Shown here: one piece after another, positions 32,658-35,600 of the stretch
How positions within the stretch are numbered: the stretch's first letter is position 1
Layout: each line of letters opens with the position of its first letter
Assembly: GCF_048403405.1 (NCBI RefSeq)
Contig: NZ_CP183129.1
Reading direction: 5' to 3' (one strand)
Length of the DNA: 64,000 nt
Source of the DNA: Escherichia coli
GTDB lineage: Bacteria > Pseudomonadota > Gammaproteobacteria > Enterobacterales > Enterobacteriaceae
Position numbers: made by a program

Positions 32658-35600
32658 TTATTTATTGGTGAGTACTACGTTCCATGGGTAAGCGTGCAGC
32701 AAAAACCGTATTGACAGGGATGTGTTATTCAGTCGGCAGTGCTACGCGCCAGGGGAGCAGTTCGCCGACCCGGTTTATCGGCCAGTCGGCTATGACGTCA
32801 AGGACATAGCGGAGGTAGCTTTCTGGCTCCACTCCGTTCAGTTTGCACGTCCCGATCAGGCTGTACAGCAGCGCTCCCCGCTCTCCTCCATGATCCGAAC
32901 CGAAGAACAGGTAGTTTTTGCGGCCCAGACTGACCATCCGCAACGCATTTTCAGCGATGTTATTGTCCGCCTCAGCCCAGCCATCATCTGCATAGTACGT
33001 CAGCGCCGGCCACTGGTTCAGGGCGTATGCGAACGCTTTCGCCAGTTCTGAGTGTCGCGACAGGGTTTTCATCTTTTCACGCAGCCAGCTTTCCAGGGAT
33101 TTCAGCAGCGGTTTCGTTTTCAACTGACGTTCGGCAAGCCGCTGCTCCGCCGTCATTCCCCTTATCTCTGCCTCGATGGCGTACAGTTCGCCGATCCGTT
33201 TCAGCGCTTCCTCCGTCAGGGCTGACGGGGTGCGAACGTGCACATCGTGGATTTTACGGCGGGCGTGAGCCCAACAGGCGGCTTCCGTTATCCGGCCATC
33301 CCGGTACAGCTCGTTGAACCCGGCGTATGCATCCGCCTGCAGTACACCACTGAACCCCGCAAGATGGGTCTGCGGATGGATGCCTTTTCTGTCCGGGCTG
33401 TAAGCGAACCACACCGCCGGCGCCAGCGTTGACCCGGCGTTACGGTCGTCACGAACGTAGGTCCATAACCGCCCGGTCTTCGTTTTCTTATTGCCTGGCA
33501 ACAGCACCGGGACAGGCGTGTCATCAGCATGGAGCTTACCGTCAGTCAGCACATAGCCATGAAGCGCCTCTTCCAGCGGAGACAGCTGCCGGCAGCATGC
33601 ATCCACCCAGCCCGACAGCAGTGAACGGCTCAGCTCCACACCTTGCCGGCCGTATATTTCTGACTGGCGATACAGCGGGGTGTGCTCTGCATACTTCGAG
33701 GTCAGCACGCGGGCCAGCAGCCCCGGTCCGGCGATACCCCGCTCGATGGGCCGTGAAGGCGCGGGGGCCTGCACGATGGCATCGCACTGAGTACAGGCAT
33801 GCTTTTCACGTACCGTCCGGATAACCCGGAAGGCGCTGCGCATCAGCTCCAGCTGTTAGGCGGCATCCTCACCCAGATAGCTCAGCGAGCCTCCACATTC
33901 CGGGCAGCATGACGCTGCCGGCAGCAGCCGTTTTTCATCGCGGGGGAGTGATTCGGGGAACGGTTTGCGGGTGCGGGTTTGACGCAGCGGGCGCTGCACG
34001 GCCGGGTCGTCAACCCGACCGGTAAGGGTATCACTTTCTTTCTGAAGTGCCTTCAGGTCAGCTTCCATCTGTGCGATACGACGGGAGACTTTTTCGGAGC
34101 AGCTGCCGACGTTCATCCGGCGCAGCTTATCCAGCTGTGCCTGCAGATGGTCTATTTCGCGTTCACGCTCGTTCAGCTTTTCCAGCAGGGCACGGTTCAG
34201 CGCCTCCTGTTCGGCAAGGAGACGTTTCAGTGCATTGATATCGTCAGGAAGTGAGCTGCTCATACCGGGTATATTACCAGGCTCATTCAGCGTCGACCAG
34301 GATAAAGAGGCTTACAACATAGTCAGGGACGTAAGCAGTCTTTTAGGCTGCCGCCAGTCGATACCTTCCAGCAGCATCGCCAGCTGTGCCGGTGTGAGGA
34401 ACACTTTGCCATCCCGGGCTGACGGCCAGGCGAAGCGGCCGCGCTCCAGCCGTTTGGTCAGCAGACACAGTCCATCGCCGGTAGACCAGAGGAGCTTTAC
34501 CTGACTGCCATTACGCCCACGGAAGATAAAAACGTGACCTGACATCGGATCGTCTTTCAGCGTCGTCTGCACCTTTGCCGCCAGGCCGTTGAAGCCGTTT
34601 CTCATATCGGTGATGCCAGCGACCAGCCAGATCTTTGTCCCTGATGGTAATGGGATCAACGTTTGAGCTCCCGTATCAGCAGGTTCAGGATATTTTCGCT
34701 GATGGCACCATTCAGACGGAGTGATCCGTGCCGGAACGTCACTTCACAGCTGATATTGAGTGATTCAGGTGTCGCAGCAGCTACAGGTTGTGACCGGGGG
34801 GAGGTTGTAGGGACAACATCTTCGGCATCAAGTGTTATCGGGAGCAGCTCAGGCACGTTGTTTTCTGTTGTTGAAGGAGGACGTAGTTTTCCTTCGCGCC
34901 AGTACTGGCGCCACTTGAACAGCAAATTATCGTTGATCCCATGCTCACGAGCGAGTTGCGCTACGGAGATCTCTGGTCGATGCGAGAGTTCAACCATTTT
35001 GATTTTGAACTCAACGGGATAATTAGGGCTTTTTTTACGCACTGCGGTTAATGATTTCATGGATAGCGTCCACCATATTTGGTGTCCACTATTCTTTCAG
35101 GAATTTCAGGATCTGCCAGACGGTGCTGAGACGACGCTTACGAATCAGCACGGGGCTGACAACTGGAAAATCCTGCCGGGTGTACCGTTGTATGACACGA
35201 TTGTTATCGTCACTGGTGAGAGTGTGCGCAGGGATTATATGTCGGTATATGGCTATCCCGTGCCAACCACACCGTGGCTGAATACTGCTCCCGGTTTATT
35301 TATTGACGGCTATACATCGGCAGCAGCCAGTACTGTGCCTTCCCTGAGCCGGACACTGATTTATGACTATGAGCAGAACCCTGATTCCGGCAACAACGTG
35401 GTGGCGCTGGCAGCAAAAGCAGGATACAGCACATGGTGGATATCCAATCAGGGAAAACTGGGAGAGCATGACACACGCATCTCTGTTATTGCTTCTGATG
35501 CGGAGCATACCGTTTTCCTCAAGAAAGGCAGCTTCGCTTCCCGTAAAACGGATGACATGTTGTTGTTACAGGAAACAGAACGTGCACTGGCGGATAAATC

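Follow-up and report, generated by a model that had tools for sequence, protein, structure and literature searches.

The stretch analysed here (the window) comprises 64,000 nucleotides of the Escherichia coli contig NZ_CP183129.1, and the subject of this study is a copy of the insertion sequence (IS) ISEc22, a member of the IS66 family, at positions 32688-35141. Several complete E. coli chromosomes match positions 32600-35250 with 100% identity. Strain CFT073 deviates from this region in one base, at 33139, and carries its counterpart within the pathogenicity island PAI-CFT073-pheV (coordinates from PMC7545054), about 4 kb from the pheV-proximal end. The gene order of the island in CFT073 is papX, debris of IS66 and IS600 elements, hlyCABD, an msrPQ-like gene pair and a two-component system (c3564/c3565, named OrhK/OrhR in PMC8550376), followed by an IS3 fragment, the ISEc22 copy, a truncated phosphoethanolamine transferase gene, the genes for a tetratricopeptide repeat (TPR) protein and a P4-type integrase, and the tRNA-Phe gene pheV. 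The features at the element and its two borders are listed below; annotations are from the Prokaryotic Genome Annotation Pipeline (PGAP) where so stated, and L-numbers denote records used for comparison.

32688-35141, minus strand: complete-length ISEc22, IS66 family, 2454 bp (identity, length, and target-site duplications elsewhere with the same boundaries)
32688-32716: terminal inverted repeat on the tnpC side, carrying two derived substitutions
32725-34263, minus strand: tnpC pseudogene, a 513-codon frame in which codon 136 is a stop (translation, PGAP label, Pfam)
33856-33858, minus strand: the in-frame TAA at codon 136, which is GAA (Glu136) in intact copies and lies between two zinc-finger CxxC motifs
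34312-34659, minus strand: tnpB (IS66 Orf2-like), intact (Pfam TnpB_IS66, E 1.6e-38)
34656-35060, minus strand: tnpA, intact (Pfam HTH_Tnp_1)
32395-32627, minus strand: C-terminal fragment of an IS3-family transposase, cut by the ISEc23 end (PGAP; longer version in L008 and L015)
32628-32687: the 60 terminal bp on the tnpC side of an ISEc23/IS682-type element of the IS66 family, 100% identical to annotated ISEc23 ends
32680-32687: left flanking 8-mer TTCCATGG, equal to ISEc23 positions 53-60
35142-35149: right flanking 8-mer GAATCAGC, the target duplication made when the element first inserted into the transferase gene
35142-36123, plus strand: 3' two-thirds of the transferase gene, encoding the sulfatase domain only, with the first 521 nt missing (PGAP, homology, Pfam)

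On the strength of its sequence, length, termini and gene order the element is assigned to ISEc22. Its 2454 bp equal the published length of ISEc22 (PMC5001619), and over this full length it shows 98.9-99.3% DNA identity to plasmid copies annotated as ISEc22 with an intact transposase; the copies annotated as ISEc22 that were compared differ from it at 8-26 positions. GTAAGCG begins at 32688 and CGCTTAC finishes at 35141, the terminal inverted repeats being GTAAGCGT at 32688 and its complement finishing at 35141. The IS66 gene set is present as tnpA, tnpB and tnpC, consecutive on one strand and with a 4-nt overlap between tnpA and tnpB, and the TnpA and TnpB proteins are identical to those of the intact copy in L009. 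The window copy is accordingly like ISEc22 in length, termini, gene order and these two proteins, but differs from it by a stop in place of Glu136, by two substitutions in one inverted repeat and by the lack of a target duplication; two features of the IS66/ISEc22 family, a TnpC encoded in one open reading frame (ORF) and an 8-bp duplication, are thus absent. The substitutions in the repeat, 32703 G>A and 32716 G>A, each cost one match to the opposite repeat, and G is found at both positions in all eight other copies compared.

Read on the minus strand from 34263 to 32725, tnpC gives 135 amino acids, TAA, QLEL and a 372-residue continuation, all in one frame with a single interruption. The initial annotation, which had placed the N- and C-terminal parts of TnpC in one frame separated only by the TAA at 33856-33858, is borne out by this translation, and so is its suggestion that the stop arose from GAA, since this codon is present in every intact copy examined. 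Base-for-base alignment places A at plus-strand position 33858 in the window and C in the intact copies L003, L004, L009 and L012; the ancestral codon is therefore GAA, and the change on the coding strand is a single G>T that converts Glu136 to TAA. Glu also occupies position 136 in TnpC of ISEc23 and of a related element described below as ISx, and comparison with the intact copies revealed no further disabling change in tnpC beyond the TAA. In the intact protein the Pfam domain zf-IS66 covers residues 118-161, so that the stop falls within it. The N-terminal fragment matches LZ_Tnp_IS66 alone and the C-terminal fragment DDE_Tnp_IS66 plus DDE_Tnp_IS66_C, while zf-IS66 was detected by Pfam in neither. 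As a consequence, the leucine zipper is separated from the DDE catalytic part, and a complete zinc finger is lacking in both.

The two flanking 8-mers, TTCCATGG and GAATCAGC, differ, just as had been noted initially. When the same boundaries are applied to other copies, perfect 8-bp duplications are seen in L003 (ATATATTC), in L004 (CAAAGCAA) and in both L009 and L012 (GAATCAGC). These four copies rule out a boundary error, and the absence of a duplication in the window is therefore real: the two flanks of the window copy stem from different insertion sites.

The right flank consists of the 3' 982 nt of a 1503-nt gene that is whole in the related islands L005 and L006. The missing 521 nt (about 174 codons) correspond to the entire EptA_B_N membrane domain, whereas the sulfatase domain is kept (E 2.7e-34). 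Pfam detects the two domains together in the intact L006 homologue, and PGAP labels the neighbour in CFT073 'phosphoethanolamine transferase, incomplete, missing N-terminus'. The initial description of a truncated phosphoethanolamine transferase on one side of the element was thus correct. In isolate AF46 (L009) and strain WP7-S17-ESBL-01 (L012), ISEc22 occupies the identical position and orientation in the same pheV island, with an intact TnpC (WP_001530845.1), the transferase 5' part on the left and GAATCAGC on both sides, and these two elements have lineage-specific variants at 33557, 33559, 33587, 34110 and 34184 in common with the window element. The left junction of such a simple insertion into the transferase gene was found in 23 complete E. 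coli genomes, of which these two were examined. With this junction and with GAATCAGC on both sides in L009 and L012, the right junction of the window element is evidently that of the original simple insertion of ISEc22 into the transferase gene. The proposal that the copy does not represent a simple insertion consequently holds for its present state but not for its right junction. The transferase 5' part and its upstream 3 kb gave no match within the window (blastn with word size 7; tblastn). An ORF of 354 amino acids at 35059-36123 (plus strand) starts at an ATG inside the right end of ISEc22, opposite the tnpA start, and continues in frame into the sulfatase domain; it could possibly give an IS-gene fusion product devoid of the membrane domain.

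It is the left side that has been altered. The transferase 5' end and 3.5-7 kb upstream of it have been lost, and about 16 kb of other DNA now lies here, consisting of the hly module, orhKR, the IS3 fragment (named 'integrase core domain-containing protein, frameshifted, incomplete' by PGAP in CFT073) and the 60 bp of ISEc23. The change on this side is therefore a replacement or fusion and not a plain deletion. Isolate 327_BP0021 (L015) carries a complete ISEc23 at the corresponding place, with its own target-site duplication (CGCCAGAG); its hly module is 99.9% identical over 12 kb and is located in a different island with no transferase nearby. A search for the IS3 fragment joined directly to a longer ISEc23 gave only five two-piece matches, the best of which was L015, with 30 extra bp and the complete ISEc23. 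These 30 bp of IS3 sequence (L015 12091-12120), just outside the ISEc23 terminus, are missing in the window at 32627/32628, either through an end-adjacent deletion or because ISEc23 was inserted separately 30 bp away.

If an IS66-family element had once been inserted into ISEc23 at TTCCATGG, the other half of the insertion would be a right end followed by the same 8-mer. A chimeric query joining the right end of ISEc22 to TTCCATGG and ISEc23 was matched at 80% coverage by none of the 5,426 complete genomes that make up our survey. The best partial match was the plasmid NZ_CP069544.1 (L019), in which the right end of the IS is of the ISx type. Here an ISEc22/ISx mosaic ends in GTACGCTTAC and is followed directly by TTCCATGG and by ISEc23 from position 61 onwards, with 99.8% identity. 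The left junction of the window and the right junction of L019 thus make up the two halves of an insertion of an IS66-family element into ISEc23 at TTCCATGG. No reciprocal junction was found in the window-type genomes, which fits loss of the intervening DNA and not an inversion.

The ISx type just mentioned is a 2442-bp mosaic element of the IS66 family, whole in L017 (1282-3723) and L018, with TnpC WP_021542005.1. Gene order and type of termini are the same as in ISEc22. Over the left ~1,050 bp the identity is about 100%, as against only about 80% over the other ~1,400 bp, and tnpA of ISx is shorter (381 nt). Its length is the same as what we take to be the length of ISEc8. The element in L019 (2597-5037) is ISEc22-like up to position 2073 and has an ISx-type right end and tnpA thereafter. 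The IS66-family elements of E. coli are mosaics of each other. The window itself holds a further, shortened copy of ISx to the left of the hly genes:

17066-18434, minus strand: first IS66 copy, an ISx with a 1.07-kb internal deletion, inserted in IS600 and flanked by GGAGCTAA and AGAGCTAA
17246-32867: 15,622-bp segment absent from genomes of the L013/L014 type

The initial 180 bp of this first copy (17066-17245) are 99% identical to 32688-32867, that is, to the left end of the ISEc22 copy. In L013 and L014, the ISEc22 copy with the TAA follows directly after an IS600 fragment and has GGAGCTAA as its left flank, while its right part is as in the window, including the TAA, 33814C and 35096T. 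This left flank reads as the product of a crossover between the left end of ISx and the TAA element. Since L013 and L014 have another left flank but the same TAA, 33814C and 35096T, at least one exchange must have taken place when the element's own transposase was already dead. The segment absent from these genomes contains the rest of the first copy, IS600, hlyCABD, the msrPQ-like genes, orhKR and the IS3 and ISEc23 fragments. The L013-type joint is present in at least 16 chromosomes. A 480-bp junction query, which led to the discovery of ISx, was unusable for counting L013-type genomes, its IS66-like left part matching thousands of elements.

With regard to distribution, the exact 60-mer with the TAA was found in 81 of the 5,426 genomes, in one copy each and always on the chromosome, and about 1,190 further records contained it with one to three mismatches. 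An allele present only once per genome has not spread to a second site. The window-type left junction was found in 61 genomes, the junction between ISEc22 and the transferase on the right in 107, and the simple-insertion left junction in the 23 mentioned above, none of which was among the 60 TAA carriers listed. One record, CP088648.1 (L002; a 103.5-kb IncFIB plasmid record), has the order orhKR, IS3 fragment, ISEc22 with the TAA, transferase fragment and TPR gene, with an IS 100% identical to that of the window; it represents either a part of the island moved to a plasmid or a chimeric assembly. It was rejected as a second, independent location of the TAA element since the flanks are identical.

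Taken together, we consider the element to be, probably though not with certainty, an immobile and decaying ISEc22 copy that marks a recombination joint in the pheV island of a CFT073-like uropathogenic E. coli, a hybrid made by homologous recombination. ISEc22 entered the transferase gene of the island and duplicated GAATCAGC, a state that survives with intact tnpC in other E. coli. In the lineage of the window, the G>T change turned Glu136 into TAA and truncated TnpC within the zinc finger. In the course of events proposed here, another element of the IS66 family (ISEc22 or ISx) would have inserted into ISEc23 at TTCCATGG, and RecA-type homologous recombination with the resident copy, within the ~1 kb they have in common, would have produced a hybrid with one flank from each parent. 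The hly/orhKR module would thereby have been fused to the end of the island and the transferase 5' part removed. The element would now serve as a mere homology patch; in other genomes, a further crossover between it and the ISEc22-identical left end of the first copy is associated with absence of the 15.6-kb hly segment. Homologous recombination is favoured because L019 holds the reciprocal junction, because the partners have about 1 kb of near-identical sequence in common and because at least one swap of the left flank came after the death of tnpC.

Several observations weigh against this course of events. The reciprocal junction occurs in one record only, an unrelated plasmid of the enterotoxigenic E. 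coli type, where it could be an independent insertion at a preferred target. No crossover point is visible: it must fall in a stretch over which the parents hardly differ, so that the pattern of single-nucleotide differences carries no information. The hints to its position, namely differences between the window and L009/L012 at offsets 564 and 945, are weak. No genome was found with both parental elements in one island. The TAA mutation may, moreover, have come either before or after the first rearrangement: 61 window-type genomes and about 20 others add up to the 81, a tally that would fit a TAA in all window-type copies. Finally, the pap region of L013 and L014 diverges by 2.8% from that of the window, so that these two are not direct descendants of the window strain.

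The initial annotation had instead suggested a deletion mediated by the IS. This is right in that the transferase 5' part is gone, but what took place is a replacement or fusion, for which recombination between IS copies is favoured over a deletion driven by the transposase. In the latter case a still-active resident ISEc22 would, by intramolecular transposition, have joined its left end to TTCCATGG in an ISEc23 lying further left within this island, deleting the DNA in between together with the transferase 5' part. Such an adjacent deletion would account for a left joint that coincides precisely with the IS terminus and a defined 8-mer, it agrees with the failure to find any surveyed genome with an ISEc22-type right end joined to TTCCATGG and ISEc23, and IS activity can cause the kind of end-adjacent loss represented by the 30 bp missing relative to L015. 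We nevertheless regard it as the less likely origin, with a chance that is real but clearly minor. The junction in L019, an IS66-family right end at the same 8-mer, is what an earlier simple insertion predicts; no ancestor was found in which an intact transferase 5' part has the hly module upstream of it; the second exchange of the left flank, in L013 and L014, took place with the TAA in place and had no need of the element's own transposase; and the transposition chemistry of IS66 is too poorly established to predict deletions.

Two further explanations were considered. The interrupted tnpC might specify two products, a 135-residue leucine-zipper fragment and a DDE fragment starting at Met141, acting for example as regulators of other IS66 elements. 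An ATG is indeed found four codons past the stop (Met141, 12 nt after it), preceded by GGAG at a distance of 3 nt; both TnpA and TnpB are intact, and the allele has been kept in 81 genomes. We find this very improbable, however, as the zinc finger is split and whole in neither part, the allele resides at one locus and was never copied, the left inverted repeat has decayed too, a scan of 33700-35300 gave no promoter-like site, and clonal descent explains the persistence. As to the stop being a sequencing error or the duplication having been missed through wrong boundaries, the probability is practically nil. The same TAA is present in 81 independent complete assemblies, several of CFT073 and ATCC 25922 among them, PGAP reports the internal stop, the four perfect duplications confirm the boundaries, and nothing was found that speaks for an artefact, which is hence already refuted. 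Homologous recombination between IS copies remains our preferred explanation.

Inactivated IS copies, and hybrids that lack direct repeats owing to recombination between copies, are textbook knowledge, and the classical reading of an IS without matching direct repeats is a hybrid arising by homologous recombination between two copies. The window copy resembles a classical hybrid in having one flank per parental insertion, in that the DNA between has been lost and in that both parental junction pairs can be recovered from other genomes. It is unlike the classical case in that the partners may be different ISs, ISEc22 and ISx being alike only over the left ~1 kb. It does not represent a new kind of system; the copy is known in kind and is flagged as a pseudogene in RefSeq. 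The RefSeq annotation of CFT073 indicates the stop (C_RS27510, 'IS66-like element ISEc22 family transposase, internal stop') as well as the truncated transferase and the incomplete IS3-type left neighbour (C_RS16895 and C_RS29440), but does not mention the former GAA, the loss of the duplication, the end fragment of ISEc23 or the history of the copy. Our literature search found no paper on this ISEc22 copy.

Some other features of the window should be mentioned. Nested IS debris spans 16820-18442. It includes an IS66-like end fragment at 16820-17003 (88% like ISEc22), into which the left end of IS600 cuts (17004-17065), and the first IS66 copy has itself split this IS600. Compared with L006, homology stops exactly at 16819/16820 and picks up at 35142, so that an 18.3-kb block bearing hly and flanked by outward-facing IS66-family termini stands in for 3.5 kb of L006. 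The region 16820-35141 was considered as a composite transposon, a candidate that was rejected since GATGTGTT on one side does not match GAATCAGC on the other and since, in L006, the two are 3.5 kb apart. A solitary terminal repeat remnant of the IS66 type (CAGAAATGATGCTTAC, about 39 bp, 86% like the right end of ISEc22) is located at 28185-28223, between the region upstream of hlyC and a small Met-rich gene; it belongs to the conserved hly module, being inside the 12-kb block in common with L015. At 29384-29982 (minus strand), the msrQ-like cytochrome b gene (c3566 homologue) is broken into two overlapping ORFs. It is called 'frameshifted' by PGAP in CFT073 and is intact in EcPF5 (L008); phenotypes of c3566 in CFT073 were reported by PMC8550376 despite the frameshift call. 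Repeats are present in two tracts. At 53342-53455 a 12-nt unit (AAAAAGGTATCG) is repeated in tandem about 7-9 times, and at 46801-46917 a 45-nt repeat that includes GTTTCCACTGGAAAC occurs in three copies spaced by 36 nt, with a fourth at 47700. The coordinates of the TPR and integrase genes, when transferred from CFT073, are shifted by 12 nt, which implies a 12-nt indel relative to CFT073 between 35250 and ~36470, in or just past the transferase fragment.

By itself the finding has small significance, as nonsense-dead ISs without direct repeats are routine in pathogenicity islands. A more speculative idea, which we hold to be rather doubtful, is that the first IS66 copy, through the left end that it has in common with ISEc22, forms together with the dead element a recurrent hinge that repeatedly excises the 15.6-kb orhKR-msrPQ-hlyCABD module, perhaps for re-integration as a circle, in populations like sequence type (ST) 73. 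Genomes differing by exactly the 15.6-kb segment were observed; if the event were recurrent and reversible, such a hinge would lead to on/off variation of hemolysin at the population level. As a by-product of the analysis, all stages were seen to survive in sequenced genomes, from the unoccupied site through the simple insertion and the hybrid to the form without the hly module. The related IS66-family elements of the pheV island would thus provide portable stretches of homology by which the hemolysin/orhKR module is joined and removed, which is of relevance for tracing gain and loss of hly in uropathogenic E. coli of the ST73 type.

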